A stretch of 64,000 nt of DNA from Macrostomum lignano (Eukaryota): assembly GCA_002269645.1 (NCBI GenBank), contig NIVC01000620.1:186001-250000 (forward strand), in the 5' to 3' direction. The stretch's first letter is position 1. Each line of letters begins with the position of its first letter. Below, in pieces: positions 2,848 to 33,701 of the stretch. The notes beneath the pieces are model-generated. The model was given only the letters and a program-made list of their open reading frames with translations. It searched no databases and was not told where the DNA came from. Made by a program: the position numbers and the translations under genes.

Positions 2848-3357
2848 TCAATTTTTCTGGACGTCCAGAAAAAATTCTGGATATTTGTCTGTCATGTGTT
2901 TATTCATAATAAAAGCGCTTCCCATTTCGCTAGTGGCTGCTTCAATCGTGTCGTTCTCTTCTTCATCAAGCATGCTGTCATCCTCTCCTTCAAAGTGCAG
3001 TTCGATGTCGAGTTCGAGGCGGCATGCGAAATTTTCATCTTCTGATGCTCTTTGTTCAATTGCCTTCTTGAACGTCAGAATGGTCTCAAAGCAATATCCA
3101 GAAATTACCAGACTCGGGTACTTTTTTGTTAGCTTGTAGAATGTAAATAGTCGCTGGGAAAACTTCACATCTATATCTAGCTTTCTCGCAACTCCTTCAA
3201 TGCTCAGTCCGAGTTTTTCTTGCAACGCAGCAATTACTTCTGCTTGCTTCTTCCTGGCAATACAACCCAGCACTTCAAGGTCGGCGATGAAACCTTCCAG
3301 TTGATTGAACCGTTCGATCATGCGAGTCTCATCATCGCCAATGATAGATGTGCACAC
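2848..3357 (-). CDS. Polinton hypothetical protein (possible HTH-like helical core, acidic tail), 169 aa
   Basis: Open ORF inside the element. No family recognised with certainty. Confidence 0.5.
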   Translation of the reverse strand: MCTSIIGDDETRMIERFNQLEGFIADLEVLGCIARKKQAEVIAALQEKLGLSIEGVARKLDIDVKFSQRLFTFYKLTKKYPSLVISGYCFETILTFKKAIEQRASEDENFACRLELDIELHFEGEDDSMLDEEENDTIEAATSEMGSAFIMNKHMTDKYPEFFLDVQKN

Positions 3358-3448
3358 CTCCTTTGCGTTGTAGAACCTATAATGAAAATGGACTCAAGTT
3401 ATGATATTTGCTTTTATTCAATGAAATTATGGAGATTGAAACTCAAAC

Positions 3449-3901
3449 TTACCGAGTCCTGATAGTTGTTACTTCGTTTGTCACTCCTCTCATTTTTTCG
3501 ATAAGGCGTCCAATAAATCGGCTTTCTCTAATAGATTTAGAATCGCTCTCTTTGCTCTTCTCTTCCTTCTTATTCTTCTTGAAGGACTCACATTCAATCT
3601 TTCGCAGTTTTTCCAGTAATGAGTTCTGCTCCTCGTTAGACAAGCGACTAACTGCAACTGCTGAACTTGATTGGTCTTTTGAGCTAATACTCTTAATCGT
3701 GGAAACTATCTTAGATGGAAGCTTTCTATCGCTGGAAGAAGCCATTTGAAATATGTTGTATAGATAGAATTCTAAACCTAAAGTAAATTTTCTCTTGCTC
3801 TTGCTTGCTAAGCTAAATGAAACTAATATAGTGATGAAGAGAAAAGTCGCAGTCAGCCGATAACAGATTACAACTAGCAAAAGTGTGTGGGTGTGAGCCA
3901 C
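3449..3901 (-). CDS. Polinton hypothetical Ser/Lys-rich coiled-coil protein (likely start MASSSDRK near 3745)
   Basis: ORF track only; low-complexity sequence. Confidence 0.35.
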   Translation of the reverse strand: MAHTHTLLLVVICYRLTATFLFITILVSFSLASKSKRKFTLGLEFYLYNIFQMASSSDRKLPSKIVSTIKSISSKDQSSSAVAVSRLSNEEQNSLLEKLRKIECESFKKNKKEEKSKESDSKSIRESRFIGRLIEKMRGVTNEVTTIRTR

Positions 3902-4645
3902 GCATTAAACTTAATATTATGTGTGTGAGTGTATTAGTTTCAACAAAGAATCTCTAACAATTACTCACGCGCTCGTTGTGCGAATTGAGATAGAGAGTAT
4001 CTTTTAATAAACACACACAAATAACTACCATAACGTTTGAGAGTTGGTGAGTGTGCCAGTCCTGCATCAGCCTGTAAATTGTTGTAAAAGACAGCTAGCA
4101 TGAGGGGTGCGCTTAGTGTCTTTTATGAGTTGAATAAGGGGGTTTGATGAAGATGAAAAAACACTGAACTCCTGTGAGAGTCTCGGGGAGTGGCAGCGGA
4201 GTGTGGTGTGAGTCAGTCTCAATCTCTCAATCAGCGAAACCAGAATTCCAAAACCAGATTGTAACTGCTAAATTTTCCTAGAAAAATGGAAGCTAATAAC
4301 CCAAATGTTCGAAATGCTCTACCACAAAAATACTATGATTCTATTATGAATTTCTCTCAAATAAAAACACCCACTTGAAAGTTTCGACTAATTGAAGAAA
4401 TTGATAAAGCTTACGATGAATATAAAGCAGAAATATTAAAACACACCGATTGTAAATGCCCCCTTATTTGTATTCATTCAGAGTATATCTTGCACATGTT
4501 GATAAATGGGCATTGATTTCGAGACAGCACATAAGGAATAATGAATTTTTCGTCATGCTGAAATTGAAGATTTTCAAACTCCCTAAAACCTTTGAGAAGT
4601 ACATTGAAACTGACGAATTATATTGTTAAATTTATTTTAAATAAA

Positions 4646-7193: not shown

Positions 7194-10100
7194 TCATAAT
7201 ATCACGAATATATATTTTTTTTCAGATACAGTCATGCTTACTCTACCTCTTTGAATATCTTTGTAATCTGTCAATAGTATGTTTTTAAATGTTTCAAACG
7301 TTATATTTGTACTGCTTTTATCAACTCCCTTGATCTTAACACACTCTCCTGAAACTGTAGTGAAAGCATACTCCTTTGACCGCAGGAATACAGCTTCGGA
7401 AATTATTGAGCCATTCATTTCATCTTTCAACTTTCCAATAACTTTCTTGTTCGTCTCGGAGTATAGTGGATGCTCTGTTGGATAATCCGATGTGTCTAAG
7501 TGTTCTTTAATTTTTTCAAGATCCTCATAAAAATCCTGAGTAATCACTGAGAATATCAGAGAATCACAATCAGAATAGTGCAACTGACAGCTGTTCCTAT
7601 TCTTCTCAATAACATTGTAATAGCAATCGTACATTAGAATTTTTGCATAATCCAGAATGGCCATTCCTAAATAAATTGGCTTGTCACACGCAATTGTCTT
7701 TTTGTACATTTGGATACCAACTGCATCCTCACTAAACATAATGAAATCTTTGAAATTTGGTTTGAGAAAATAACGCCTTGCAGTTTTTTCTTCAGCTACA
7801 AGATGAAAGTTCGACCTATTCTTTACATTTTCTATTGTTTTACCGTACAATGAGTTGTTTAGTAGTTTCCACAGGTCTTTCTCAAATTTAGTTTTTGCTT
7901 CCATTCTCCGCCTGGTATTAAATTCGATGTATTTACTCAACCAGTTTGACTCTTTGAATGAAAGAATTCTATGAACTCTCGTAACTCGCATGCCCATCGA
8001 CTCATAAAACTCAAGTAGTCTGTGATGTAAAACATATTTCTCCTTGTTGTAAAATGTCAACATCAACTTTGACTGGACAAACTTTTTCTTTTCGACTTCG
8101 AGGTATTGCTTCTGTATGTCAGATAAATCCTCAAATCTAGTTGTTCGTCTTTCAGGAGCCAGTGGATATTTACCTGTAGCTTTCTTACACTCCTCTGTAT
8201 ATTCAAGGTCAACTTCAAGAAAACAACCCCTGCCATTAGGAATATTCTTGTGATACTCTAGATCATTTTCAAACTTGAAATCTCCCACAGGAAGATTTTT
8301 CATCATTGCTTCACCATATAAATTATTCTTGTCCAAGTATAACATGTATGACGATTCAGAATTGCTGTCATAATTTTCTAAATACTTATTGTTCATTTTT
8401 TTATATCGATCTCCAAGAACTCCAGAGAAACCACCGCGAATACCACTTTCTACCATGGATATCATATCTTTATCACCAAGTAATTCCAGCTCAACATTGG
8501 TATATTTCAACCCACATGCCCACGATAATCCAGAAAGGGAAAAGCAATAAGCAGGATCTATCTTGAAATATTTCAAAAATGTTGATCGAAACTTCTCAAA
8601 AGCGTTAACAAATGAGTAAATCTTTCTAATTACTGCTGTTGTATCACTGGGTGGCAAATATTTTATTTCTTCTTCAGAGAGTGTAAATGGTGGTTCCAAA
8701 AACCTAGATCCATTGTGATAAATAGGCAATTAGATAATAGCATGCACGGTAAGCAATTTTTTAGGCCCTAGACAAACCTACTTGGAGCGTTCGAAGATTT
8801 TAAAGCTATTAATCCTAATCGCCTATCGCCGGTCGGCGAGTCCTACCAGTCTTTCTCCAATAGCCGCAGGTACAGTACAAGAAAAGAAAGAACACGAGGG
8901 AACACAAACCGAAAGATTTAGAGAGTGATAATCCTATATGATACAACTGATGATTGGCTAGACGATTTAATTTGATTACTCAAGTTACAGGATTCAAGCA
9001 ATTCGCGACGCAGATAATTAGACTGATGATAACGAATAATAACGATTAATAATAACGATTATATTACGCACTGACAAGCGGATCTCAGCTTGAAGAAGAA
9101 GAAGGAGAAGGCACCGAACACAGGACCACGGAGAAAGACTCCTAACCCCTGGCCTAAGCCAGAACCTACTCTCAAACGAGAGCCCTGCCGAACCGACCGT
9201 TCAACGGAGTACCGACTAAATTCTATCGGCACTGCCCTTCAGTGTAACACTGAGGCCCTCGGGGTCGAGGCCGCGTACTTATCAGATCCGACAGTCTCTA
9301 TCTAACCGCGCTTGATAGCGACGACTTCAGACAGGAATTTGCCGTAGACGTTACGCCACAAGACTACTGCGGTTGGGCGGGAACAAAAATATGGACCGGG
9401 GGTGATGAATTCAGGCGCCTCAAAGCGCGAACCAAAGGGAACAGCTAGGCCACCGGCCGGGAGACAAGACAAAACCGGGGAAGAGAGGAGAGAGAAGGAG
9501 AGAAGGAAAAAGTGAGATCCGATTGCCAAACACACATTCATTTATAGTCAGAGTCACAACCCCTCAAAACCCCCCTCAAGCCGGGTGGTGGTCGTCTGGC
9601 TGGCCGCTTGCTTAAGCCGAATTGCACTGTGCCCGCGGCGCCGGGTAGAATTGAAACTTGCCGCGTGCCAGGGTCCAGGCCGGTTCTGATTGGCTGGCCG
9701 CGCAAAGCTGGGGTTCGCAGACAAACTCAACCCTCCGCTGAGTCACAAATTTGGCGTCTAACTCTAACCTGTTTACACAAAATTGATTCCAACTAACAAG
9801 GAAAAAGTACACCAAAAACGCATGACTAAACTAAAGCAAAATAACAATTCAATAACAATATAGAAACTAATGCAGTCAATTTACAACAAAATACACGCAA
9901 AGATGCTCACACTACACCATCTAAAAACACAACGCCACTTGTATAATTCCCCCACTTAATTGCAACATGGTCTTCCGATGTTTTAGAAATGAAATCCAAT
10001 TTATATGCTGCATTCTTTATTCTTGTTAATGGAACTATCGAATAGTTTAGATCTTTTCCAGATTCATTCAGGAGAAACAACGGTACTGTTTGATTCGCCT

Positions 10101-11382
10101 TGCCCTCTTTGGTATTACATGATTGACATGCTGCGCCGCGATATTTACCATTGTAGTGATTATGCTCTCGAATTTTCTTACTATCTACAAATGGGCTTGT
10201 GCAGAGAAAACATTGTTCTGCCGCTTTGCAATCAGTCTCTTCGACATCACTTAAACTTGGATGTTTATATCTATCCATTTCATTTTTAATATGCTCAAAC
10301 TTTTTGATTACGGTTTCAACGAATGATTCCACTGTAGTATTTGAAATAATATCCGACTGTATAATGTCTTCATAATCAGAACTAGTAAAAAGTGTCCATT
10401 GTGATAGTTCTAGCGATTTATCATCCATAGTTACATAATCCAATATAGCATAAAACACAAATGGCTTTCTCACACTCATGTGGTAGTTTTTAAACTTTAA
10501 TATCATCTTATCAATCTTTGGAACTTCAATTGACACCTTGAAGTCGACGCAAAGTGCTTTATGATTATCCAGTGCATCTTGGGAGTATTTCACTTGAAGA
10601 CACTTTCGACAAAGAAAAGCCCTGTTATTGGACGTCAGGAATAAGTTCAGGTCTGTTATTAAACAATAATGATTTTTGACAAGTAGTAAATCAATAACAT
10701 CGGGGTTGTCATAATCTTCAGTAAGACGAATTGAATATATGGACTCTTTAGTTTTAGTATCTCTCAATCCAAACACATTTATATGGAGGCTGTTCAACTT
10801 TTCAATCTCAGAGATATCTCGAATGTCTACTGGAAACGCAACGTCTCCTAAGTTTATTTCATTTATATACTGTGTATACTTAATAACTCTATATCTATGT
10901 TCCTTCACAGGATGGAGCTTTGCTAAAATAGACCAGAGAAAGCACCTATTGTCTTTAGTATTCTTAACATTTACTAATGCGTTTGATTTAATTGGAATTG
11001 GAATATAAGTTCCTCCTTTCAACTGATTAATGCCAACAACTTTCAACACAATCTTTACTAACTTAACAAAATAATATCCCGATCCCCTTTCATTAAAGCT
11101 ATCCTTCTATTCATCAAATTCATCCAGAACATCCCCGATTGTACTTTCAATACTAGCTTCAACTTGAAGCAGATTTAACAAAGTTCGATGCTTTGAATGA
11201 TATTGGAACTCAATCCAACTGTCGGTAGTTCCTTTATAAAATTCTGCGACAAAGGAAATTCTGTATTTTATTGAATCTCTAGCCATCAAAAATTCGGAAA
11301 GAATTGGAGAGATTAAACCGCGAATTTCTTCAACGGAGTCGAGTTCAAATTCATAAGAGGCCGCTGGTATTTTCCTTTCCAT
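7194..11382 (-). pseudogene. polB: Protein-primed family B DNA polymerase (TP-like N-terminus, vOTU-like protease, EndoVII/HNH-like insert, degenerate exonuclease, polymerase), split by a solo LTR
   Basis: YLDKNNLYGEAM (motif A), KLLNNSLYGKT (B), YSDCDS (C), KIKG. NTKDNRCFLWSI...NHY (vOTU-like Cys/His). CFLC...REHNHYNGKYRGAACQSCN (EndoVII-like). Removing 8714-9920 restores FLDGSRFLEPPF. One in-frame TAG at 11107-11109. Confidence 0.93.
8714..9916 (-). mobile_element. Solo LTR (1203 bp, probably Gypsy) inserted in PolB
   Basis: TG...CA ends and 4-bp TSD CCAT (8710-8713, 9917-9920). Excision restores the PolB frame. A minus-strand TATAAA (~9541-9546) and CCAAT (~9689-9693) suggest the orientation. 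Confidence 0.88.
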
Positions 11383-11407
11383 TTTTAAGAAAAAAAATTA
11401 TACAATA

Positions 11408-12150: not shown

Positions 12151-13530
12151 TTATGTGGCAATTATGTCTAAAATCGGATAAAGTTGAAAGCCTGAAACTA
12201 TAAGAACAGTTGATCCTTCAGTGGCTGAATTAATATGCACTCTATAAACGGAGAATTTTTCGGTGGAAGCTACTTCGAAATACTTCATCACTCCAGGAAC
12301 TAAACCAGCGTTTTCGGTAGAAAAAAATATTCTTTAAGTCTCTCTTGTTATTGCTTCCTTTCAGAATAAAACGTTTTGGTTGATTTTTTATAATTTCACT
12401 ACCTACTGCTTTGGTTCCTTTCAATCCGAATTTCCAAATTTGAATAGACTCGGGAAGTTGTACTTCAATGTAAGAATTGGAATCATTCCTCGATGCCCAT
12501 TCTGAATTAGATACTATATAACCCCAATTATCTGACGTTGCAAATGCTCCAGATGACGCTACATTGAAACCCCTTTCTCTCTAGTTTTGGTATGTTGCTA
12601 GTGAGGGAATATATCCTGTATAAGATTTGAAACCTAGTCCCCGCCTTAGTCGCAGCTCCACTGATTCAAGTACATTGTCTACGTATAGCTTTGGTACAGC
12701 TTGAAGTCTATCTATAGGCCACACTAAATCATTAACCACTGTTTCTCTCTCAAGTAATTCAATTTTTGTAAGCTTTACAGAACCAGAAAAATTTAGAGAA
12801 TAATGGAAATAATATGAGGGATTGGGTATTTGTTTCCTAAGATGTGCATTGCTCCTTCGTAGTTCAATGGGTGCACTTTGTTCAACAGGTGTCCAGTTTG
12901 TTCCATTTAGGCTCACACTAACAGACCAACCAGGCCACACCTCTCCTTCCAACTTTATCTCTACAACTTTCCTAGCTCTTTTCAAAAATTGAAATCGTAT
13001 CCACTTGTCTGAGTCATCTGCACTGCTCCATTCTGAAGCTGGGTTTGAATCTGCAACATGATATGCTGCTGAAGAGTTATGAGAAGCGGTCAATTTCATG
13101 TCAGGATGGGAAGTGTTTGAAGTCAGTAATGAAAGAATATTGACTAATTTCGAAGTCTCTGTACCCCCACAGTACCTTGCCTTTCTGCTAATAAAGTGTC
13201 AATTTCAGTTTTAGAATACATCTTAGTGTCAATTTCGGTTCTAGAATACATCTTAGTGTCAATCTCAGTTTTTGTGTAGACATTGTTTACGCGCCCATGA
13301 GCATCGTCAATTAATTGTAGCATGGTGATATTCATTGCGTCACTATCTTCCTTTGAATAACAGTCTGAAACATTTCTCTTTGCTAACAATAAACTATCTA
13401 TTTCCTCTCTCTTATATCCTTCACTTTCATTGATGTAGCGATCATCAGCTAACGCTATTGTTATTCCAGGCGCTATATCATTTGAATTTGACGAGTAACC
13501 AAATTGATTGGCAGTATTCTTGTAACTCAT
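12151..13530 (-). pseudogene. Fibre/receptor-binding-like protein: Y(T/S)KxEID repeats + discoidin (F5/8 type C-like) domain + C-terminal domain; frameshifted
   Basis: YTKTEIDTKMYSRTEIDTKMYSKTEID repeats, then LTSNTSHPDMKLTAS...D.NPASEWSS...WIRFQF...SLNGTNWTPV. The last fragment ends at TAA 12151-12153. Confidence 0.65.
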
Positions 13531-13967
13531 TTTAATTGCTGCAAAATTTCATTAAAGCTATCTCCTTTATCGATTCGGTGTAAAAAGTACAGCGACATTT
13601 GACCACAATATTTCTTATCAAAAGTTTGAATTTGTTCTTCCATGTCTCCACATATTCTATTCTTTGTGTGATTAAACTTTTCCATAATTTCCAGTGTGGG
13701 GGGTAGTGCATAGGAATCAAAATAATAAACCTTATCAGGAGCTGAAAAGATAGCTGAATGATGTATACCCCGTTCTTTCGAAGTGTGAATATTTGTCATA
13801 AAGTAACCATACTGTGGTAAACCAACAATTTCATCTCTCATGGCATAACGAAATGGTTTTAACTTGAGATATTTTGCCCAATTTATCAGATCAATATTAG
13901 TCGTAGTGTCAGTCCCAAACTTTTGTTTAAATGCGTTCCATGTGTCAGCTTTGCTCATTTTTAACAC
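13527..13967 (-). CDS. Adenain-like (C5) cysteine maturation protease (ATG probably 13958)
   Basis: N...RGIHHS, YYFDSY, QIQ and YCG give His/Asp/Gln/Cys in adenain order. Confidence 0.85.
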   Translation of the reverse strand: MLKMSKADTWNAFKQKFGTDTTTNIDLINWAKYLKLKPFRYAMRDEIVGLPQYGYFMTNIHTSKERGIHHSAIFSAPDKVYYFDSYALPPTLEIMEKFNHTKNRICGDMEEQIQTFDKKYCGQMSLYFLHRIDKGDSFNEILQQLK

Positions 13968-14152
13968 TCATATTTGTCGTACGTGTAGATTTATAAATAT
14001 TTCCTCGCCAAGAAATATTGGGATCGTTTTATGAGAACCAGATAATATCTGCAAGCTAAGCTTGGTCAGCTAATGTTAGTTTAATTTTAGACTTTTAGTG
14101 ACTCTAAGGGATCTTGTGGTTTTTTTCTTGGTTCACAAAATTTAACATAAAG

Positions 14153-14483: not shown

Positions 14484-14744
14484 TTATAGTTTATTTTTTA
14501 AATAAACCTTATCAGGAGCTGAAAAGATAGCTGAATGATGCATACCCCGTTCTTTCGAAGTGTGAATATTTGTCATAAAGTAACCATACTGTGGTAAATC
14601 AACAATTTCATCTCTCATGGCATAACGAAATGGTTTTAACTTGAGATATTTTGCCCAGTTTATCAGATCAATATTAGTCGTAGTGTCAGTCCCAAACTTT
14701 TGTTTAAATGCATTCCATGTCTCAGCTTCGCTCATTTTTAACAC
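14484..14744 (-). pseudogene. Truncated second copy of the protease
   Basis: Near-identical to the N-terminal ~80 aa of 13527-13967 and lacks the Asp/Gln/Cys half. Confidence 0.9.
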
Positions 14745-15539
14745 TCATATTTGTCGTACGTGTAGATTTATAAATATTTCCTCGCCATCAAAGTCGTATA
14801 GAACACCAGACTCATCTTCGATGACAAAATCGAATGTGCTCAACATGTTTGTAGTTAGTGGTAGGTACACAGGATTTGCAGGCTCTTGAATAATTTTACT
14901 TCCCATTGGGACGGAGAACGATGGAATTGAGAGAAGTATTTGCTTATCAATTAAATGATTTCGATTCGCTGGATCAGTGATAAAACCCCCCTTGATATTT
15001 AGACAACGAACCATGATTGCACTTCTAGCTCCGTCTATCCGAGCTGGATTTGGAGCTCTCTCAAATGGTTTCAAATACACTTCCGAATCGAATCCCAACA
15101 GTCTTCTAAAATTATTGGAATGTGCATCCCTGAAATCAACTTGATAATTTGTGGCTAACCGTAACTCAGCTCTACGCGTGTCTAGGCTTGCACTAAAAAC
15201 AATAGCCCCCTCTTTCCAATCATTTGCAGCTGTTAGCAATCTTTGAATCTCGCTTGGCAGACTTTTAACTTCCTATGAACCTGCTTGAATCTTTATTTTT
15301 CTCCATGTTCTACCACTATCCCTCGAGTATCGCAACTCATTATTGCCTCCTTCAATATTGTTAATGGCATCAAATACTGCAAACTTTTTTATACCAGCTT
15401 CGTATTCTCGATCTTCATAAAGATTTATAGGAGTGCCTAGAGTTTGTCGAAATGAGTTTTTAATTGAAAAGAAGTCAAATGTGCGTTGAAACTTTTTACT
15501 CAAGAGGATGTTGACTTTTTCTATTTCTTTTTTCCATTT
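14745..15539 (-). pseudogene. Minor capsid protein (penton)
   Basis: AINNIEGGNNELRY, NNFRRLLGF, VRCLNI, SVPMGSKIIQEPANPVYLP, FDFVIEDESG. One in-frame TAG at 15273-15275 and a homopolymer frameshift near the ATG. Confidence 0.8.
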
Positions 15540-16271
15540 TTAAGCAAATAATTCTGCTAGCTCTTTATCAACATTGTTATGTCCCTCTGCCTTAGCTGCT
15601 AGTAATGTCAACACTCTTTCACTGAGTCCAGATCCCGGTTTTACTCGATATCCTGGTGGATTATCTTTCAATATCCTTACTGCTTGCTTATAATTCCCAC
15701 TTGATTTGGCCGCTGGATTTTTACAATGTTCAATGAGGTTAACATAATCCTGCAATGTTTGCATCTTGAATTGCTTCAGCTCTTCACCATTTTCAGTTAC
15801 TTTAGGCATTTTGAACAACTCTTCAAGATCTTCAGAAAATGGCATTCGGAATTCGTTGACAATGATGTCTCGACCTTGTTCATGGAATTCAACATCTATT
15901 ACAGATGATCCAAATATATATCCAGCATCAGTTTTTTGAATTCGTATACTAGGTGCTGGTCTTTGAGTTATTGGAATCTTTCCAATTTCTTCAATTATTT
16001 TGTCAAATACTTCCAGAGGTTCAAATCGTCCTTTTGGTGTACTTGATTGCGGAACTGGAACTTTTTGATTCTGAAGTTTATCAACAAGGTTGGCATTGAC
16101 ATCAATAAATTCATCAAGCTTTTCTGTGACAGGTTTTTGAGCTAATGGATCCACTCTTGCATATAAACTCTCTTCTCCAATTTTCAAATAGCGTTGAGCA
16201 TCATTTCTGGATTTGTACATTTCTCGCTGCTTTGCTAAATTAATGAGATCTTTTATATATTCATTAGTCAT
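15540..16271 (-). CDS. Conserved Polinton core-like protein, 243 aa
   Basis: C-terminal GSGLSERVLTLLAAKAEGHNN resembles the GxGL...RLxLL...AGNN motif I recall from Polinton core proteins. Confidence 0.6.
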   Translation of the reverse strand: MTNEYIKDLINLAKQREMYKSRNDAQRYLKIGEESLYARVDPLAQKPVTEKLDEFIDVNANLVDKLQNQKVPVPQSSTPKGRFEPLEVFDKIIEEIGKIPITQRPAPSIRIQKTDAGYIFGSSVIDVEFHEQGRDIIVNEFRMPFSEDLEELFKMPKVTENGEELKQFKMQTLQDYVNLIEHCKNPAAKSSGNYKQAVRILKDNPPGYRVKPGSGLSERVLTLLAAKAEGHNNVDKELAELFA

Positions 16272-16273
16272 TT

Positions 16274-17045
16274 TTACAATGGGATTTTAGTTAGAACATC
16301 CTTATACAAATCTTGCTCATCCTCATCAGCTCTTGTATTTATATAGATATAGCCATACTTCTTTTTCCAAGCCTTTCTACATTTAGCCTTGAATATAGCG
16401 GGTTCATAATTCGTTTCTATATTTCTAGCAATGTGATTCAAGTTTGTATCTTTTTGTTTAAAGATTATGTAGCATGTCGTATTCTCCCTGACAGTATTGC
16501 GATCTAGTTTGGTAAAATTTTGAGCTAGATAAAAACCACAACAGTTTCCATGCCTGCCTCTCTGAAACAGACTTTCCTGAAATGTTTGATTAGCCTCTCC
16601 CAAAACATCGTCCAATATCACATGTCTTTAGTCCATTATGAAAAATTTCTTCATTTGGAGTATGAGAAAGAGTGACAGGAATTTTTTTGATTTCTTCATT
16701 TTTTTCTGATGTGCTTTGCACTCGACCAAGGTCGGCTGCCTCTCGACAAATATGTCTAATATCTTCAGGAGATGCATCCTCACTCACCTGGTAGACATGA
16801 TAGAGTGAGTTGATAAGAGAAGGTGGGAGACCATTTTCAAAGCCATGCTTTAGAAACTGATACTCTGGATCCATTTGAGATGCTCTGGGAACATATAAAA
16901 CTAACTCATTAAAGTCCACTAGTTTTTCAGGACTTGTAAGAATATGGAATAGTAAATATGTTTTACCCGTATTTGTAGCGCCGATAAAACAACATAAAAG
17001 AGGATTAGGGAAAATAGGATCATGCTGAAATTTTACTTTGGGCAT
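16274..17045 (-). pseudogene. A32/FtsK-like DNA packaging ATPase, frameshifted
   Basis: GATNTGKT (Walker A), ILDD (Walker B), RGRH, AQN and FKQ motifs across ORFs 16590-17045 and 16274-16621. Confidence 0.92.
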
Positions 17046-17066: not shown

Positions 17067-18434
17067 TTATTCGACGCGGCCCATTTGAGGGTGAGGCCCA
17101 CTGATAACTTGGATTACATTATTTGTTTGTTCAAGAATTAGTGCAAAAGCTGTCAGCTCAACATTGGTTGACTTCTTGATAAATAATTGAATATTCACTC
17201 CAATCTTGACAAGAAACTCATCCTGAGCTGTTAGATCAAAGCAGAATATTGGATAGATGGTTAGATAGTCTTGTTTATTGAATGGTGGAGTTACACCGAA
17301 ATGGCTGCAGATGCCCTCGTACATTTCACACGCTTTATGAATGTCTTGAGCTACTGGATCAATATCAACATAATCAGTTGGATACATCACTTGATTTAAT
17401 CTGACTTGAAGCTGGGTTATTTTTACTGCATTTGCTCCAGTCTTGTAAGACACATACTTGTGATCATTAACTATATATGATGGGTTGTTTACGTCATATT
17501 TGAAGGCTACAAAGATTGCAAGTGGCATATTGGAGATGCTGGTTTTGTTCCATGTATATGGGCTTCCTTGAATGAGTTGTGGCGGAATCGTTACCCTCTC
17601 TGGAAATGATACTATAATGCTCTTGTTGAGTGATTCTAGAAAAGCTGCTTCAGCACTGGGTGACAAAGTAATAGCAGGGATCCAAATCTCAAAGCTATTA
17701 ATAGTTAACTTAGCTTCGGTCCCGGCAGCTCCAAAGAAAATTTCAGCATCGTTAGTCTTTCTTGTCCATGTAAATTTGTATTTAATTCCTTTGCTAATTT
17801 TCTGCCAATCAAGGAACCCAATGAGGGGTGTTAATGATAGTTTGATTGTTCCACCTCTGTTTGGAGCATTAGTGACATTATTATAATTTTCAAGCCTCCT
17901 AATGTATCCAGTATTCGAATCCTTCTTATTAAGTCTATTTTTCATAGCGATTGCTGCAGTTCTCACAGCTTCAGCATCTGCGTTGTTTGCTAGAGGTATA
18001 TCAGAAACAGTCCCAGCATCCCCAGTGTCTGGAATCCAACCGTATGCTTCTCCGACTTCATTCATCAATTTTGAGTACATTACGGATTTTAAGATTGTGT
18101 CATACTCTCCAGGTTCATTATAGACTTCCTTTGATCCTCCTATGTCCACAATAAGTTGAGAAAACAGACGCATAGGCCAATTATGTTCTAGAGTAATGTT
18201 CGTATTCAAGTCTGTGTTATCTCGCTGTGTTATCGAGTATCTTATAAAACCGAATGCCTCTGACATGAGAATGTATGCCTCTGTTGAATTGACTTCATGA
18301 ACTATTTGACCTCCAGCAACATTGACATTATTACTGCTACCTGCTGTTGGCGAAATCTTAATATAATCTTTCTTTTTGAAAAAGCTAAAAGTTTTGTCCT
18401 CATATAGGTTCAGTATATCCTTTTTGTTTTCCAT
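17067..18434 (-). CDS. Double jelly-roll major capsid protein, 455 aa, intact
   Basis: Size, position next to the ATPase, beta-rich pattern and C-terminal YPIFCFDLTAQ resemble Polinton MCPs. Confidence 0.8.
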   Translation of the reverse strand: MENKKDILNLYEDKTFSFFKKKDYIKISPTAGSSNNVNVAGGQIVHEVNSTEAYILMSEAFGFIRYSITQRDNTDLNTNITLEHNWPMRLFSQLIVDIGGSKEVYNEPGEYDTILKSVMYSKLMNEVGEAYGWIPDTGDAGTVSDIPLANNADAEAVRTAAIAMKNRLNKKDSNTGYIRRLENYNNVTNAPNRGGTIKLSLTPLIGFLDWQKISKGIKYKFTWTRKTNDAEIFFGAAGTEAKLTINSFEIWIPAITLSPSAEAAFLESLNKSIIVSFPERVTIPPQLIQGSPYTWNKTSISNMPLAIFVAFKYDVNNPSYIVNDHKYVSYKTGANAVKITQLQVRLNQVMYPTDYVDIDPVAQDIHKACEMYEGICSHFGVTPPFNKQDYLTIYPIFCFDLTAQDEFLVKIGVNIQLFIKKSTNVELTAFALILEQTNNVIQVISGPHPQMGRVE

Positions 18435-18820
18435 TTTTATACGAGAAATTTAAACTAAGCTTCATGAGGTCTAAGAATTATCCCATTACCCTGTTTCTCC
18501 TTTTCAACTTTAAAAGTCTTTAGCAGCCACTTAACTGCTTCACTGGGTACTTGTTCGACTCTTTTAGCCGCATCAACTAATACACCACTCCCTTGAGCTT
18601 TTTTAAATTCTTCTAGTTTTTGTCGTTCAATGCTTTCTAATGTCTTATTATGTTTAGCATTGTTGGCTGTATTAACACTTTTTGCAATCATTGTACCAAC
18701 TCCTGAGGCTGCTCCGATACCACCCAAAATTGCTGGTAGTAAGCCTAATAGAGGAATTATTCCACCTTCATGTTCTTTCTGTTTGTCTTGCAATTCTCGA
18801 ATCTTCTCTTTAGAAAGATA

Positions 18821-21752
18821 CTAGCAGAACCCCCCGCTTAAAGTGTCCCATCCACGGAAAATTCCAATCTATTGCATAACTCCCCCATTAAATTTTCCCA
18901 TCCGTGAAAAATTCCAATCTATGGGATGCAAATCCTCGGAATCCTAGTCTTACAGTATGTGAGCCAACATAATTTTAATTGATATTATTAAAATTCGATA
19001 ACAAATCGCAATAGACAATGCAACGGAAATACTTAAAATAATACTGAAATGCTGTGTAGTGTGACTTTCACATCTTGTACTTATTTGCAAAAAAATCGAT
19101 GCGATGGCACAAATCGAATTTACGCGCTGAGTTTATTGATGGAGTTTATTGACTTTGAGGACAGCTCAGCAAGAATCAAATTTTACAATAAAAATGACTC
19201 ACATTCTACGGAGTTGAAAAGCTCTACTTTTCTCTACTACTCTTCTCTGAAAAGCTCTGCAATTTTTAACATATCATCTGTAAATTCAGTAAGTCCATGA
19301 AATAAATGATATATACTTCTATTACAGTCCTTGACGTCAGTGCGATTTATCGGCGGCTGCTTCACACCGCTTCATTCAGTATCGATGGTTTCATTAGCTG
19401 ACTCTGCAGGCAAATCCTTGGACATACAGGAGGCGTCAGGGTTGTCTGCCTCACACCGATCTGGTCCCAGCCGAGGTTCCTTCCGTCGTGGCGTCAGTTC
19501 CTCCGATTCGTCCAGTCTCTCTCCAAGGATTGATTCCAGATGGTCCCGCTCTGCCCGAACGATGTCCAAATCGTACCTGAGTATGGCGATCTCGTCGTCC
19601 CTCGCCTTCTGCCCTTCTTCCAATTCTGCGATGCGCTTTCTCAGATCGGCTATTGTTGAACCCTGTTCTCCTACAATATCGGAGAACACTTCCGCCGCCA
19701 CGCAGGTGTAGAATCACGTCCCGCATTGTCACAGGGCCCTCACCATCATCAGCAGTCTCAGTGCCAGTCAAGACAGCAACCTCACTGACAGCAGGAAGGT
19801 TAAAGCGTCTGTAAATGCAGAAAAATAATAGTTATAATAATATTAGTCATACAAATAGGAATAGTTTGGAATAATTAAAACCATGTATGTTCACAACATC
19901 TCAAAATCATTTACCTTAAGTGTTCCCCAGCTGGCTTTCGGTCCGCGCGAATCACAAGAGACGAATGCTTCAGCTGAGGGTCCTCAGTCAGTCTCTCAAT
20001 CGCAGCTTTGAAACTGCGCACATAAGAATTGTGTCGGTGCAGCAAGTTCTGAAGCAATTCTATCAGCTGGCGGTCAATGCCCTGGACCATGGCCATCCTT
20101 GTCTCCAATTCGGAGTCACAAAAAAAAGATCTGACAAAACTTTGCTGCACAATTTCCTTCAGGGAGCAAACTTCCCATTCGGTGGTGAAACTCTCCATGA
20201 ACAATCACGTTAATACATCCACCAGGTAGTAGTCTCTCATTCACTCCCAATGAACACATGTGAAGCAGAGCATTGATCTTTCTTACGTTGTTCAGGAAGT
20301 TGGCGCTTTTGTCGCGCTCACCCAGGTAAAGTCTCTTGAGCTCGTCCGGGATTTGTGGCGGCGTCAATTTCACCTTTTCGCCCTTACAGCACATTCCAGG
20401 TGGTTCATATTGCCAGAGCAGGGCGCTGCATTTCTTGCATTGTAACGCCATTCGCCCCGCAAAATGTGGCTTCATAGCAGTCGCAGTCAGCTGCCAACTC
20501 TGGCGCAGGGCATCTCGGGCACGTGCTGCACTCAGTCGGGCAGCACTGTCCGTCTCAGTCTCGACATTATTGTAAACACGGGTGGAGATCTCAGAGAGGT
20601 CGGGTAGCTCCGCCTGTGCACTGCTCATAGAACGAGCACCGCTATCAGACCCCACTGTAGCATCTAAAAAAACATCCACTGATGACGCGCAGCGACTCGT
20701 AATGCTGGCTACTGCGGTGGTACAGCAGCAGAACGGTGGCCACAGACGGCAGCGTCGCTGCTGGTGAGCTCTGCACGCAGGTCAGCCTGTCGTCTTGGGA
20801 CTCGTCAAGCTGATAAATAGCGAAATCCACGTTCAGGATTTTGCCAAGCAAAGGCGCGACAAAATCATGAACGTAGACCCCATCAGTCAAGGTGTCCCGT
20901 ACCACCTGCTCGATGGTCAGCCGCTCGACCTGCAGCAGGGCAGCCTGCTCCTGGAGCAGAGGCGGGAGTCTGTCTGCCATTGTTCGCCTGACCATGGCGT
21001 GGTCCATGGCCAGCGGCGTTCCGCGCAACTGATCCGCAACGGCGTGAAAGTAGCAGTTGCCGTCCCCACTGACAGGAGTAACCTGGGTGCAGGTTACACT
21101 GAGCGCGCGACCCGTGACTGACCTGCAGTTAACAACGTTTAATACTTTAAATCCAACGTTTAATCCATGTTTAGATTAAGGGGCGAAGGCAGATTTATTT
21201 CAAAACACGATAAATCTCAATGTTCATGAGTTCATTGGTTGCTAGGGTCTTCGAATTGGTTGCTAGGGTCTTCGAATTGGTTGCTAAGGTCCTCGAATTG
21301 GTTGCTAGGGTCTTCGAATTGGTTGCTAGGGTCCTCGAATTGGTTGCTAGGATCCTCGAATTGGTTGCTAGGATCCTCGAATTGGTTGCTAGGGTCCTCG
21401 AATTGGTTGCTAGGGTCCTCGAATTGGTTGCTAGGGTCCTCGAATTGGTTGCTAGGGTATTTTTGATTTTGGTTGCTACGGTCTCGTGCTTTGGTTGCTG
21501 GGGTCTCGTTTTTTGTTGCTTTTAACTGCAACTTGCTTTTATGACTGCAACAAGAATGCACTAAGGAGATAGGAAAAATACAGTTTTTCCCACATTGCCA
21601 AGCTCCCTGTCAACATTAAGGCGATTTGAAACATGCCACATTGTCCCAGAAAGATGTGCCATCGAATGGTACAGGTCCCACGGACGGCGGACCAGCCGTT
21701 CGCCCGGAAACGTGACGCGCACAGACAGACAAACTCAACTTTAGGTATATGA
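18821..21752 (-). mobile_element. Non-autonomous, internally deleted Helitron (2932 bp)
   Basis: Inserted between A and T; 5' TCATATACCTAAAGTTGAGTTTGTCTG, 3' CTAG. Carries OTU-like (HYESLR), Zn-finger (CKKC...CC.GEKVKL) and Rep N-terminal pieces homologous to 39265-47529. No HUH or helicase region. Confidence 0.9.
21234..21460. repeat. 21-bp minisatellite (gtcctcgaattggttgctagg)n inside the Helitron
   Basis: About 11 near-perfect units. Confidence 0.95.
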
Positions 21753-21847
21753 TTGCTTTTGCTTATTTACAGTAACATATCTTGGTTTTCCCTCTCGAAC
21801 ATATCGATTGAGTCTTGCTTCGGTGTTTTTCTCGCTCATTTTTAAGT

Positions 21848-22270
21848 TCAGAATTTCTTCAAACCATTGCCTTGTCTCAAAGACACTTGAGACTGTTCTG
21901 CTGTTCCTAGAGCCTTTTTAACAATATCTTGAATGGCCTTGTTTGATTGCGAAGCTATCTGTTGCTCTTCTTCCATTCTTTTCTTTGCTTCTTTTTCTCG
22001 GCGTTTCTTTTTAATATATTCCAGTTCCTCGCCTGCTTTAGACATGTCACTGTATGATTTCTTCGCATCAAATATGTTTTTCGCTGTGGTAGCTGTTTTA
22101 CCTATTGCATCGGCTCCACTCACAATTTTACTTCCATGATTTGATAAAAAGTTTGTGACACCACTGATCATATCACCAATTCCTTCACCCTCTTTATCAG
22201 CTAGTAGTTGTGAATCAGACGTTTCAATCTGACCTTTCGCCCGTTTGCAGTTTGTTCGATAGGCGCTCAT
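21848..22270 (-). CDS. Basic/coiled-coil virion core-like protein with GEGI and GNGL motifs
   Basis: Start TAAAAATG at 22270. The GxG-hydrophobic motifs are shared with other core ORFs of the element. Confidence 0.6.
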   Translation of the reverse strand: MSAYRTNCKRAKGQIETSDSQLLADKEGEGIGDMISGVTNFLSNHGSKIVSGADAIGKTATTAKNIFDAKKSYSDMSKAGEELEYIKKKRREKEAKKRMEEEQQIASQSNKAIQDIVKKALGTAEQSQVSLRQGNGLKKF

Positions 22271-23038
22271 TTTTAGTTGGAAAATTTGCTGGTAAAAGCT
22301 GGGATTTGTAAAATGATCCAATTTCTTCTCCATTCTCATCCTCAATAATGTAAGTTATGGGATTTGAGTAAACTATTTTCTTTATCCTAAACACTTCTGA
22401 AATTTTCCAATAACCTCTTCGGCCCTTTTCAAAGTGCTCCTTGTATCTATAGATATGAACTTTGTCACCTACTTTGAAGTTTGGTTTCTCATTTGAATAC
22501 TCGAAGGAAGGCTTTGGTACTCGCTCAGGATGTTTAGATGCTTCTGAAGGAGTTATCAGAATCTCAGAATGGATTGTGTTGTTGTATTTTTCAACAATAG
22601 TTGGCAATATGTGGAGCCACTTCTGGTTTCCTTGTAGATCAAATTCAAACCAGAGTTTATTTGTGAGAGTACGATTGAACCTCTCAATCATTGCATTCTT
22701 AGACTCACCATAAATTGAGAACATCTTGTTAATATACTCCCCATTTTCATCTTTCTTTCTTATGTCGTCTTTTGAAAACGAGTATAGCTTGTGTACATAT
22801 GCTGATTATAAAACTCCTTGCCTTCATCTACACAAAGTCTCTCTGATCGTCTTCCTGATTCCTTAAATACTTTTTGGAAAGCTTCTGCAACTTCCGCTCC
22901 CGTCTTTGTTTTCAAAGGTACTGCCCAAGCGTAACGTGTAAAACCATCTATGATAGTGAGTGCATATTTGTAACCTCTTTCAGGAGGAAGGATAATGATA
23001 TCTGCATGCCAAATTGTGTCTTTTGCATAGTGAATCAT
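22224..23038 (-). pseudogene. Polinton retroviral-type (rve, DDE) integrase, frameshifted
   Basis: IWHAD, TIIDGFTRYAWAVPLK, VDEGKEFYN, IERFNRTL, YNNTIHS, FKVGDKV and NPITYIIED...GSFY. Confidence 0.93.
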
Positions 23039-23580
23039 TTTCTAAATACTCTTGGCTTTCGATATTCTTTATGCAATTTCAAAGCATCTTCATAGCTAAG
23101 ACCATTGCCGTATATGGTTAGACAGTCTATACAATTGTTGGGGGTGTGAGTATGAATGCCTAATCCAAACCGAACTTTAGCTTTAATAACACGCTTTACT
23201 AGATTTCTAATCAGTCTCTCTTTCACAGACAAGTCTCTGGTTGGAATAGCATCTAAATCAGCAATCATTTTTTCATCAGCAATATGCTTCTTTGCTAGGG
23301 CTTCCTCTGGAGTTGAAGACGTCTTTTCAGCATCTCTATAGCTTTTGTCATAATAGTAAGCAGTCCAATCGATTGGGTTAATTGGTAGACTATCATACCG
23401 AGGCCTGTCTGTAATTGGATTGAGTCTTTTGTCTAAATTTGTACCTGGGCCAGTACAAGAATACCCTGGAATATGAAATTCGCCAGGATATTTTCCAGTG
23501 GAGAAGATGGGTGGTAGTTTTGTTATAGCTGACTGAATATCTAAAGCATTTCCTAGAAATAATGGTTTACTGAAGGCCAT
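23035..23580 (-). CDS. Parvovirus-VP1-like phospholipase A2 domain, probably the N-terminus of a PLA2-integrase fusion
   Basis: HIPGYSCTGPGTNLDKRL...PINPIDWTAYYYDKSY (the catalytic HD reads YD). The ORF end LHKEYRKPRVFRK matches the usual N-terminal lead-in of Polinton integrases. Confidence 0.85.
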   Translation of the reverse strand: MAFSKPLFLGNALDIQSAITKLPPIFSTGKYPGEFHIPGYSCTGPGTNLDKRLNPITDRPRYDSLPINPIDWTAYYYDKSYRDAEKTSSTPEEALAKKHIADEKMIADLDAIPTRDLSVKERLIRNLVKRVIKAKVRFGLGIHTHTPNNCIDCLTIYGNGLSYEDALKLHKEYRKPRVFRK

Positions 23581-24084
23581 TTTATATATATATAATTTAC
23601 TATCGTTAAACTGGATGACACTTTCATATTCTATATACCTGAAATTGCATTGAATTGACCCGTGAATCCAACTTTTCTCATGGTTTTAGAGCTGGAATCG
23701 TGAAAATTGCACTTTTTCAAAATTTTTGAAAATCACAAAAAATCGCTGTTTTCAGACCATTTTCACCTGTTTTTAGTCATTTTTTACTTATTTTTACTGA
23801 TTTTCAAAATGAGTGAGGGCATGAGGGCGAGGGCACCCCCCTTTTTTAAAAGTATAAAAATTCCGGAAAATCTGTGTTCTGTGAAATATTCCACAGGCCA
23901 ATGCCCCCACATGCCCTCACCCTCAACACCCTCACTCACAGATATATGTATATTTAAATATCACACACTTGCAACTCTGACCTCCTGGTAGTAGTAGTAT
24001 GTTATAAGGGGCTGAGTCATCCAGCGAGCTGGCGCGCAATGCGCCCGAGCAATAAGTGTGGCGCAGCCCCTTATGACATACTAC
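23457..24084 (-). repeat. Polinton right TIR (~628 bp)
   Basis: Inverted copy of 1959-2591. It ends catactac and runs into (gagactac)-type octamers instead of tact. Confidence 0.97.
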
Positions 24085-24156
24085 GAGACTACGAGACTAC
24101 GAGGCTACGAGACTAGCGCTGTCTGGGATTTTGATGAGGATTACCGCAAGCTCATG

Positions 24157-25563: not shown

Positions 25564-27939
25564 CCGCAAGACTGCGGATGGCCTGCTCTGCAGGTCATGG
25601 TCTCATATCTATGGTCTGCGGCTCAATTTGCTGCTGATATGTGAAAACATTTCTAATGAGTCTTAGTTTGCGGCTGTGGCCTGCAGAGCAGGCCATGAAA
25701 AAGTCGGTTGTTTTAAGTAACTTTTTTGTTCCTTTTAACATCTGATTTTTTCTATACTATGGCGCAACAGGGATACTAAACGAGTTATGAAATGTGAATA
25801 TATTTTCTCAACAGTCATTGGAACAGTGAACAAAAGTTCAAAGGCATGGTGAAAAATTTACGAAAACAAGTAATACGAACAAGTTTAAAATAATATGCGA
25901 GTAATTCAACAACGACCAACAAACATCGATAACACCAAGTACGAGTAGCAGTCATAGGCATAACAGCAGGTGAGTCACAATTTAACAAATAGTTATAATT
26001 AATTTTGATTGGCATGCCAATCTCCGAAGCAGGGCACAGCGCAAAGACCTGGATTTCCCTGACAGTGATCGCAGCAATAGACATTTTTCTTGACTCGGCC
26101 ACTCTTGTAACACTGTCTGCAACGCTTGGCTGGCCGAGCCTGGGCACCTGTTGGCCGGAGGCGCTTCAGGAGATGCTGCTGCCTATTGGGTCCTGTGCCA
26201 GGCTGTGCTTGAATTTGCCGGCTCCGTGCAGGTCCAGTAGTCTGGATGAAGCCCTTGATGGTTAATTCCAAGAACTTAAGGAAGTCGGGACTGGTACACA
26301 ACCCAACCGTTTCTGACAAGGACCAAGAAAAAGTGGGCCCCTAGCTTGGCAAACCACTTTTGTGTCCTTCTGTTTGGGCTATACGGCTGTAGGCCCGAGT
26401 CCAGCTTATCAACACCGCCCATAAAGCTATTGTACGATGTTGCTGTTAGAGGCTTGAGTTCGACAACTTCCTGATTTCCTTGAATGGTGCGGTGAACATG
26501 TTGAATGGCGGCGGCATTTTTGGTGTCAATAAAATACACCGTCTTTGTACCAGATGCCTTTCTGACGACGTACTTCACAGCAAGTACACTGCCGCTTCGC
26601 ATGAAGGCACAGCCTGGAGCGGGCACGGCCAGATCTCTCAATTCAACGGGGACACCGCGGTTTGCACGCACTGTGCAGGTCAGCAGTGTGCCGTGATGCA
26701 GCAGGTAGTCTGCTAGGCGATGCGATCCGAACCAGCTGTCGCAAACGACATGGTAGCCAAGGTCCAGTACATATCGGCATGTCTCAACCAGCACCTTCTC
26801 GCTCATCGAAAGTCCTTCACATCCCAGATCTTGACCAAACTTATCATTCTCGGCTCTGCTCGAATGCACAAGAAAGTTGCAAACATAACCTGTTTTTGCC
26901 TCGCACAAGCAATAAATTTTAATGCCATACCGCGCTTTCTTTGCTGGAATATATTGGCGGAACAGTACTCTTCCTCTGAACAGCACCAGTTCTTCGTCTA
27001 CGCTTAGCTCCTTCTCTGGCATGTACACGTTCCGGCAGATCCGCGACACACAGTTGATGAAGGGCCTGGCCTTAGCCAGAGGATCAGCGGCGTCAAAGTT
27101 GGAGCAGTCATAGAAGCGTAGTAGACTGCTGATCTGCTGAAACCTGTCTCTTGGCAGACATGCTTGCTGCTGGAAGAATGGCGTAGAATAGAAGTCGCTT
27201 TTAGACCAATAGTGGGTCACTTCCGGTTTTTTTACTACTCCCATATAAAGGGACATTGCGACGAACTTTGAAATCTCATTTACAGTGACATCCTTCCAGC
27301 TGGAAAATCGCGATGGTAGCTGTTCATCCTGAAGATCTTCGAACTCGCGCCACGTTCGAGCATTCGTCCAGTCGCACAGCTTCTGTAGCAATTCGGGTGT
27401 CAGAAACATTCGGCTGAAAGCTTCTGGATCTTCGTCAGCGTTCTCGGGTTGCGGCAAATCCGGATTGACACCTGGCATGCCAAGGAACTCCGGGTCCTGA
27501 TTCGGCTTCTGATCTTGGCCAGGGTGGCATGCATGCCAAACATTGGTTGCACCATGGGCAGCGGCCAAGCCTTCATCTACCTCTTGCATTTCCATGCCTC
27601 CTTGTTCGGTTTCGTCCTCATCATCAGTGAAAAAACTGTCGTCTCCTTCTTCAAACTCGGGATCAGTATCAGTATCAAAATGCTCCGCTTGAGCCATAAT
27701 GACGATAAATAGTGTTAAAAAATTGAAAAGGACGTTAATAGAAACTGCTCTAGCTTAAAAAAATGAGCCACAAGCTGTACAAATACAATCCAAAAGTTTC
27801 AAAGACTAAATACTCAGTAGGAGCTGCTACCGCAAACTAAAGACATGTCAGCCAAAGATTAAAAAATGTTCATGGCCTGCAGGGCAGGCCAAGCCGCAAA
27901 CTGTGTCTATGGCATAAACTCATCAACGCAGTCTAGGGG
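25564..27939 (-). mobile_element. piggyBac transposon (2376 bp)
   Basis: TTAA TSD at 25560-25563 and 27940-27943. Imperfect TIRs ccgcaagactgcg / cccctagactgcg, plus subterminal GGCCTGC...GCAGGCC palindromes. Confidence 0.92.
25999..27697 (-). pseudogene. piggyBac transposase with a frameshift before the Cys-rich domain
   Basis: SVDEE, VCDSWF and MGGVDKLD (DDD triad) in 26276-27697; CRQC...YCCDHC...LCAVPCF..WH in 25999-26319. Confidence 0.93.
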
Positions 27940-32777: not shown

Positions 32778-33701
32778 CTACTCTCTCCGATTACGACCTT
32801 CAACCTGCGCAAAATTAATCCCAGTCCTCTTTCTGAAAACCTCCGCGCACCAGACCGAGCCTTCTAGAACTCTGACCGAGGCCAGCCTCCTAGACTCGAG
32901 CGGTACGCCCATCTTCTTAAGCCACTCATCAGTCTTCTTTTCACAACATCCCCTCCAGTTCCAAACCAAACCAATCACGCTCTGGGCACCTGGGCCCGCC
33001 ACCTTCGCGACCTCAGTCGCAAGACCCTCGTCTGAATAATATTTGCTTTTATTGTCCCTAGCGAGGGCCATAGGCCCCGCTCCTCTGTCCGCACAGATCG
33101 TAACGTCAGCAATCCAAACCTTCTCCTTATAAAATATTATTAAATCAGGTCGTCTATGCCCCCTAGGAGTCGCAAAAGACTTTTCCTTCAAAACACTGAA
33201 CCCAAGACGCTCTAACTGGCTCGCAATGAACTCTACCATCCTATCGTGCCTCGCCCCTCTCTTATCCCAAGTCCTGTTGCACTGCTGCAGAATATGCCCC
33301 AATCCCTCAATTTGCCTGCACCCTGCATCACACAGAGGCGCTTGCCTCCTACCTCTGGACGCACAAGCTGCAGTCGGCCAAACATTCCATCTAATTTTCA
33401 GACATTTGATGTACATCTCATCTGTGAGCAGGGACGAACCGTCAGTCACCCAAGAGTGGACTTGTGGGACGTCCGCTGCTTCACCCAAGCCAAAGCCGTC
33501 AAGGTTAACTAACAACTTATTTTTCCAGAACACCCTATAATCAGCTCTATCGTTAAAACTGGTCTGCGCACCTTTGAGTTGGAATCGCTTACGAATGGCA
33601 GGTAGTTGGGCTAAGTCACGGACCAATGCGTCCGGAACCTCTTCGAGGCTCACCAACTTCTGCCATTTGTACATAGGAACGAGCGTAAGTAAATAAGACA
33701 A
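32778..33701 (-). mobile_element. 5'-truncated R2-like non-LTR retrotransposon (CCHC knuckle + restriction-like endonuclease)
   Basis: CDAGCRQIEGLGHILQQC...RHD...RRPDLII...IADVTI...KSKYY. No RT domain remains. Confidence 0.88.

Follow-up and report, generated by a model that had tools for sequence, protein, structure and literature searches.

A decayed Polinton/Maverick gene of Macrostomum lignano encoding a PLA2-integrase chain, a probable protease-cut virion precursor

Entry enzymes, integrases and precursor cleavage in described systems

The retroviral integrase is produced as the C-terminal part of the Gag-Pol precursor, which is made via frameshift or readthrough, and is freed by an aspartic protease. 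The PLA2 of parvoviruses enters the particle as a capsid fusion within VP1u, which is not known to be removed by a viral cysteine protease. Adenovirus protein VI lyses membranes. The parvovirus PLA2 acts in entry, according to the available portions of PMC4642659 and PMC8502044. The gene described here, in which a PLA2 and an integrase are fused, resembles both arrangements: its PLA2 would ride into the particle as part of a fusion, as VP1u does, and its integrase would occupy the C-terminal position of a precursor and be freed by a viral protease, as in Gag-Pol.

Two virus groups provide cleavage rules that bear on such a precursor. According to the available parts of Born et al. 2018 (PMC6048507), the clan CE protease of mavirus cuts GG↓X and GX↓G (the arrow marks the cut), two GXG sites stay uncut, and the virions hold the integrase together with the lipase-like protein MV13, the latter split into two fragments, possibly at a GK↓G site. 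In the same account, the mavirus integrase (MV02) and lipase (MV13, an alpha/beta hydrolase) are separate genes, unlike the fusion described here, and the capsid protein is the main protease substrate, whereas the MCP of the present element has no GxG. In adenoviruses, the adenain motifs (M/I/L)XGX↓G and (M/I/L)XGG↓X free virion-internal proteins, and the AVP precursors are pVI, pVII and pX (PMC7998265, in the portions available). In the fusion family, unlike in adenoviruses, P4 is mostly Lys/Arg and the protease would act on a pair of enzymes; neither an integrase nor a PLA2 is known from adenoviruses.

As far as the available text of the reports goes, Polinton PLA2 and integrase are described as two genes, the former standing alone as PLA2X or CAP. 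The alpha adintovirus PLA2X (Starrett et al. 2021, PMC8502044; Sf Mavericks, PMC5803895) carries a pX-like tail, and the separate integrase carries a chromodomain. The present element departs from PLA2X systems in several respects: PLA2 and integrase form one chain, a pX-like ORF lies elsewhere (18820-18458), the clade lacks the chromodomain, and a PriCT-2/D5 primase-helicase is also found. Assignment to PLA2X was rejected because the PLA2 runs on into the integrase instead of forming its own gene with a pX-like domain. Neither a PLA2-integrase fusion nor a Polinton protease motif is mentioned in the accessible text passages of PMC8502044, PMC11161782, PMC3671162, PMC4061559, PMC5803895, PMC4642659, 10.64898/2026.06.19.733378, PMC11071296, PMC11296320, 10.1101/2019.12.13.875310, PMC7998265, PMC6048507, PMC11131425, PMC8097293 and PMC12220804. 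All parts of the arrangement are known; the precursor arrangement and its motif appear to be undescribed in the literature so covered, and the architecture bears an automatic Atlas name, apparently without an interpretation. The locus bears on the possible formation of infectious particles by animal Polintons, on the substrates of their protease, and on the route by which the integrase reaches the genome of a new cell.

A decayed element with a damaged copy of the fusion gene

The window, i.e., the whole 64,000-nucleotide stretch of M. lignano contig NIVC01000620.1 that was analysed, contains a 22-kb Polinton/Maverick bounded by terminal inverted repeats (TIRs), with the fusion gene at its right end. 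The left TIR (1963-2591, + strand) and the right TIR (23457-24084, - strand) are ~630 bp long and identical at 626 of 627 aligned bases, with 3 gaps. The right TIR overlaps the start of the fusion gene, and the left one carries a dead-end copy of the first ~43 codons of the PLA2 gene. The left end reads AGTAGT, the (AGT)2 end typical of Polintons/Mavericks; AGTAGT termini are described for Mavericks in the available parts of PMC8097293. The right TIR lacks its outermost 4 bases and is followed at 24085-24116 by a short GAGACTAC-type 8-mer tandem. No 5-6-bp target-site duplication was seen by eye in the element flanks, which we attribute to damage, i.e., the abraded right end and the 8-mer tandem, rather than to membership of another family. 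The terminal ~100 bases (1959-2057) form an imperfect palindrome with arms that are 78% complementary, possibly an origin hairpin.

The gene content is likewise that of a Polinton/Maverick, comprising an rve-type DDE integrase (PF00665) and the set of double jelly-roll (DJR) capsid, packaging ATPase and clan CE protease. The MCP (17067-18434, - strand) matches PF21738 above the cut-off (E 1.4e-10). The A32-type packaging ATPase (16277-17045, - strand) is in two pieces, one matching Pox_A32 below the cut-off (E 0.0012) and the other carrying the P-loop. A probable family B DNA polymerase (7194-11397, - strand), also in pieces and with a domain of the endonuclease VII type, is indicated by PolB motifs identified by eye and by Endonuclease_7; Pfam, PHROG and PDB searches with the polymerase pieces gave no polymerase match, and the polymerase is 34% identical to a 1253-aa polymerase-like ORF of L001, a Polinton-like viral contig. 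The PriCT-2/D5-type primase-helicase (5077-6795, + strand) is stop-broken and adjoins the PolB gene. The element is a Polinton/Maverick, and a decayed one: its polymerase, ATPase and helicase genes are all broken.

Several further features lie in or near the element. GC-rich stretches at 8730-9900 and 19300-21600 break into it, one of them splitting the polymerase; the second contains a 21-base tandem array (21192-21506) and ORFs that, in our reading, recall a Helitron, for which Pfam and PHROG gave no match above the cut-off. The stretch 14501-14792 duplicates the 5' part of the protease gene (13724-14015) over 292 bases at 97% identity. The ORF at 15539-14745 (- strand) has no Pfam or PHROG match. 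Fibre-like ORF pieces at 12245-13530 (- strand) include an F5/8 discoidin domain (E 1.1e-06) and an RRGLGF motif. Outside the element, 26276-27697 and 32778-33674 (-) presumably represent a piggyBac-like transposase ORF and a non-LTR retrotransposon-like ORF.

The fusion gene as a whole spans 23580-22224 (- strand) and is interrupted by two frame breaks, in addition to a Tyr at the catalytic His column. Its first part (23580-23035, - strand; 181 aa; PF08398, E 9e-07) comprises a PLA2 of the parvovirus VP1u-like group, the linker and the first integrase residues, and stops at the first frame break (23035-23041, - strand). There, the preliminary description had noted that the PLA2 stop overlaps the ATG of the integrase; the overlap exists, the PLA2 ORF ending at 23035 and the integrase piece starting at 23038. 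The first piece of the integrase core (22760-23038, - strand; PF00665, E 1.7e-11) reaches a second frame break near 22790-22805, inside the core, which had been overlooked, and the second piece with the C-terminal domain follows (22224-22805, - strand; rve_3 below the cut-off, E 0.013; no chromodomain). Relatives read through the first break. P0154, a natural 423-aa fusion, aligns by tblastn to three successive frames at 74%, 69% and 68% identity, the PLA2 ORF being 74% identical to its residues 1-173 and the second integrase piece 68% identical to its residues 239-423. The overlapping ATG corresponds to an internal Met, found mid-chain in P0002 and P0154 and replaced by Ile in P0001 and P0003. 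The fusion gene begins inside the TIR, its first 41 codons lying within the repeat, and loose contig ends near 23457-23559 in sister copies hint that the inner border of the TIR perhaps varies between copies.

Taken at face value, the ATGA overlap would mean two genes, or a programmed frameshift, with a PLA2 that is a pseudo-enzyme. Such a reading could draw on the overlap itself, on the published arrangement of stand-alone PLA2X and integrase genes and on the programmed -1 frameshift fusions suggested for other adintovirus genes (PMC11071296), both as given in the available portions of the sources. It is largely refuted, and we regard it as very improbable: besides the second break in the integrase core, this same copy has breaks in its polymerase, ATPase and helicase genes; the Met varies among relatives, a start there would lose the integrase His conserved in 53/56 fused relatives, and neither break nor the catalytic codon looks in sister contigs as it does in the window.

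These sister copies, whose junction run and His codon the preliminary description had proposed as places to inspect, are contigs from four runs of four studies of the same organism, compared over 21800-23700. Being short, the contigs merge several copies, and none of them covers the whole gene; the window itself may derive from one of the runs. The window differs from them at both breaks and at the codon in 4/4 runs. Length variants occur at the junction and at the second break in all four; at the junction, the variant accounts for 243/256 and 66/66 of the depth in two runs, and for 1566/3817 and 440/1055 in the other two (~41-42%, a count made imprecise by short contig ends). None of the depth at the catalytic codon, in any of the four runs, carries the window's base. 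The family is high-copy in the host, with depth up to thousands, and over 1.9 kb some 90 positions separate the window from most sister contigs. Because the sister contigs differ at the breaks and the codon, the window holds a damaged member of a high-copy family, the damage being due either to mutation or to assembly error, and not a split gene or a pseudo-enzyme. A stop-start gene pair was rejected since relatives read through the junction and sister contigs differ in length there. The Tyr, correctly placed by the preliminary description in the catalytic His column (residue 77; 23350-23352, - strand), had been left there as either decay or the mark of a pseudo-enzyme; only decay stands, since His occupies this column in 53/56 fused relatives and the window's base is absent from the depth of the four runs. 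The near-identity of TIRs around a damaged interior suggests that a defective copy moved in trans, or that the TIRs are corrected during replication. There is also a warning for annotation: fusion proteins of this kind are filed as 'transposase' or 'hypothetical', and decayed pieces mimic separate PLA2 and integrase genes.

Spread and conservation of the PLA2-integrase chain

Of 412 candidates for longer relatives of the PLA2 ORF, 2 matched, both continuous PLA2-integrase chains (70% and 74% identity), and the clusters of these two relatives yielded two further single chains. The earlier proposal that PLA2 and integrase form one chain is borne out by these single-chain relatives at 70-74% identity and by a large family. 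The survey for N-terminal PLA2 fusions on integrases that had been suggested alongside it finds the fusion to be widespread (121 proteins, and clusters in the Atlas). When the PLA2 alone was searched against representatives at 50% identity, 308 matches were obtained, and phmmer found an integrase in 17 of the 150 listed; a profile of the integrase start detected it within the same chain in 29 of the 150 listed PLA2 representatives versus 0/150 for reversed sequences, and many of the other listed representatives are fragments ending soon past the PLA2. Atlas clusters with both Pfam families have 184, 111 and 72 members (scores 0.90, 0.87 and 0.86, two of the three below 0.9) and mostly belong to Preplasmiviricota where the assignment is known. 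A two-domain profile gave 1744 matches, with both domains in 106 of the 120 listed, a query-biased figure that does not represent a frequency among Polinton integrases. That the PLA2-integrase fusion is real can be considered practically certain. A more distant fused relative, at 36% identity, comes from the coral Oculina patagonica. Scanning viral contigs and metagenome contigs for loci with both the fusion and a protease gene returned none for the fused relatives; a single locus, L001, was obtained, and it bears a different fusion.

The 121 fused proteins reduce to 56 at <70% identity, the set on which all conservation counts are based. In the PLA2 part, the catalytic residues are His in 53 (with 2 gaps and 1 Tyr), Asp in 52 and the second Asp in 53; in the integrase part, the D, D and E residues are found in 56, 51 and 49, the remainder being gaps. 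Since both active sites are conserved, both halves are under selection as enzymes, and the option of a pseudo-enzyme PLA2 falls. The family shows the VP1u-type PLA2 signature (GPG calcium loop, His-Asp dyad and second Asp), which the window copy departs from at the His; the match of the PLA2 to AAV VP1 is weak (E 0.019).

The chain is laid out as a short leader, the PLA2, a linker of 9-79 aa depending on the family member, and the rve integrase; some relatives add an N-terminal DUF5679 or a C-terminal chromodomain. DUF5679 (PF18930) opens many fused relatives (P0222, P0235, P0245-P0269), with GG/GxG between it and the PLA2, and may be a third product of the precursor. A PDB sequence search with P0154 gave no match. 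AlphaFold modelled P0154 from a 32-sequence alignment (mean pLDDT 77, pTM 0.48); in this model, the N-terminal part matches an entomopoxvirus PLA2-like protein and the C-terminal part matches the integrases of mavirus, MELD-virus and foamy virus (PFV intasome). A quick PLA2 tree has fused and short forms mixed throughout; as many short forms are probably fragments, it gives neither a date nor a number of fusion origins.

Glycine motifs at the domain borders and the clan CE protease

The FGLGI and YGNGL motifs of the PLA2 ORF, already reported from this copy, are at residues 138-142 and 157-161. The first, RFGLGI (23155-23172, - strand), is the main candidate protease site and lies directly past the last PLA2 helix; the second, YGNGL (23098-23112, - strand), is clade-specific and lies in the disordered linker. 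At the first motif, the first Gly is present in 56/56 fused proteins and the second in 49/56. Where the second Gly is absent, the middle residue is Gly in 4/7 versus 3/49 otherwise (Fisher p 0.003, for related sequences uncorrected for kinship), and by this alternation of GxG and GG, 53/56 fused proteins read one or the other at the PLA2 end. These are the cut motifs of adenain and of the mavirus protease in the available parts of PMC7998265 and PMC6048507. A clan CE substrate would carry GG↓X or GX↓G where a domain border is open to the protease, as the same 53/56 do. At the PLA2's opposite end, GG/GxG occurs within 7 residues upstream of its start in 37/43 (13 with too short a leader being excluded), against a background of 9/1842 integrase windows, 11/151 windows further upstream and 6/145 elsewhere in the linker. 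In the window's clade this N-side motif is missing, and P0154 is among the 6 misses. The family consists of two separately folded domains joined by a disordered, variable linker, with a conserved GxG/GG at the C-terminal end of the PLA2 and, mostly, also before it.

The preliminary description had treated both GxG motifs of the linker as candidate sites. The first is conserved across the family, whereas YGNGL is present in P0002, P0153, P0154, P0003 and P0178 and missing from P0001; a second GG/GxG is found in just 8/56 linkers, and YGNGL was rejected as a universal site. The same five proteins have, in the part of the linker corresponding to 23122-23154 (- strand), a His-rich stretch and a CxxC, possibly a small metal site, which P0001 has lost.

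It has to be considered whether the fusion works uncut as a two-domain protein, in which the glycines would cap the last PLA2 helix and form a hinge, and the PLA2 might replace a missing integrase N-terminal domain or tether the protein to membranes. The P0154 model lends itself to this: helix 112-131 is the last of the PLA2, the glycines follow it directly as motif 132-134, and the first Gly may, as modelled, be a helix cap. P3-P6 of the motif lie in this last helix, so that cutting would require unwinding. The shortest linkers leave 9 residues from the Gly to the integrase His, so that these integrases are without the additional N-terminal stretch of L001. P4 is Lys in 35, Arg in 5 and Phe in 7 of the 56, departing from the M/I/L of adenain. 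Among PLA2 homologues for which a fusion is not demonstrated, the motif is kept in 67/87 (34/121 did not reach the column); the motif therefore marks the PLA2 end generally and not the fusion, and a stand-alone PLA2 precursor could be cut there too. A helix cap accounts for one Gly, however, and not for the second or for the GG/GxG alternation, and it leaves unexplained both the motif before the PLA2 (37/43) and the enrichment in unrelated small ORFs described below. In addition, the model has disorder from 134 to about 171, with pLDDT <50 from 134, and this disordered linker together with the low pTM (0.48) predicts no fixed contact between the domains. An uncut protein is, altogether, unlikely.

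The same type of motif recurs elsewhere in the element, as had been proposed for its core-like proteins. GxG followed by a hydrophobic residue occurs 9 times in the 1688 aa of 11 non-enzyme ORFs versus 1.25 expected (reached in 0/5000 shuffles; the PLA2 itself contributes 2 of the 9), and twice in the 2991 aa of 14 enzyme or capsid pieces versus 1.81 expected, i.e., at chance level; the proposal of a shared motif stands for these small ORFs. The narrower [KR]xGxG form, defined after seeing the data, occurs 6 times versus 0.19 expected in the non-enzyme ORFs and 0 times versus 0.24 in the enzyme and capsid pieces. A small basic ORF with an inferred core-like role (21848-22270, - strand) has KEGEGI and RQGNGL; among its homologues, both Gly of the first motif are kept in 12/12 while the middle residue varies, and RQGNGL is found in 8/12. 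An ORF that we take to be similar to adenovirus pX/pVI (18458-18820, - strand; no Pfam or PHROG match) has GG followed by a hydrophobic stretch, then AQGSGV and KQGNGI, and a core-like ORF presumed to be of PZ type (15540-16271, - strand) has KPGSGL.

The element encodes a clan CE (adenain-like) cysteine protease in an open frame (13527-13958, - strand) with His66, Asp81, Gln111 and Cys118. A protease ORF had been placed at 13527-13967; the ORF itself is confirmed, and its true span runs from the ATG at 13958 to 13527, 13967 being merely the stop-to-stop limit. Look-alikes in the Atlas carry Peptidase_C5 (scores 0.95-0.97), and the protease aligns (E 2e-5) to a protease domain that itself matches ASFV pS273R (E 1.1e-4). 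A PDB sequence search with the element protease gave no match, and a single-sequence model reached a pLDDT of 39.7. L001 encodes, at 2740-4251 (+ strand), a 503-aa protease-integrase-chromodomain fusion, whose protease domain matches ASFV pS273R (E 1.1e-4) and whose protease-integrase junction reads IVGRG, the exact adenain consensus; it is a single example, and a rescan for fusions of this type returned L001 alone.

On balance, the favoured interpretation is a decayed Polinton/Maverick gene for a one-chain virion precursor cut by the clan CE protease of the element. Cleavage at the first motif by the viral protease is quite likely, and it is rather likely that the chain is packaged and acts in the next cell; packaging and the maturation cut are proposed by analogy with mavirus virions, which hold the integrase and a two-fragment lipase-like protein, and with the entry role of the parvovirus PLA2. 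In this model, the PLA2-integrase chain would be packaged whole into the virion and, as the latter matures, be cut at Gly-x↓Gly or Gly-Gly↓x by the clan CE protease. The freed PLA2 would help the particle to leave the endosome, as in parvoviruses, and the freed integrase would travel with the genome in order to insert it, a role also proposed in mavirus. Being fused, the two entry enzymes would share one packaging route at 1:1, by the same logic as in retroviral Gag-Pol. With its conserved active sites and GG/GxG borders, the widespread PLA2-integrase chain links an enzyme of entry to one of integration, a link that is meaningful only if there is a particle stage, and the fusion names a concrete candidate substrate and motif for the uncharacterised Polinton protease.

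Cleavage could also take place in the producer cell, the fusion allowing a single eukaryotic mRNA, with its start in the terminal repeat, to supply two proteins, with an integrase that transposes within the cell and no delivery by particles. The gene does start within the TIR, the family is high-copy in the host, and no Maverick particles had been seen as of PMC8097293, in the portions available. Yet only particles give a reason to conserve the catalytic residues in a PLA2 of the parvovirus entry type, clan CE proteases act in virion maturation, and mavirus packages its own integrase; we hold this explanation to be improbable, more so than the uncut protein. Returning to the packaged precursor, one can tentatively speculate that Polintons in general make the integrase as the C-terminal portion of a virion precursor matured by the protease, a strategy that would parallel Gag-Pol and have arisen independently of it. 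The N-terminal partner would then be swappable (PLA2 here, protease in L001), the specificity of the Polinton protease would be [KR]-x-G-x↓G, and the fusion would keep the lytic PLA2 and the integrase latent until maturation.

A 99%-identical partial protein from Macrostomum lignano, P0271, is present at NCBI for the stretch 21848-22339 (- strand), which includes the small basic ORF.
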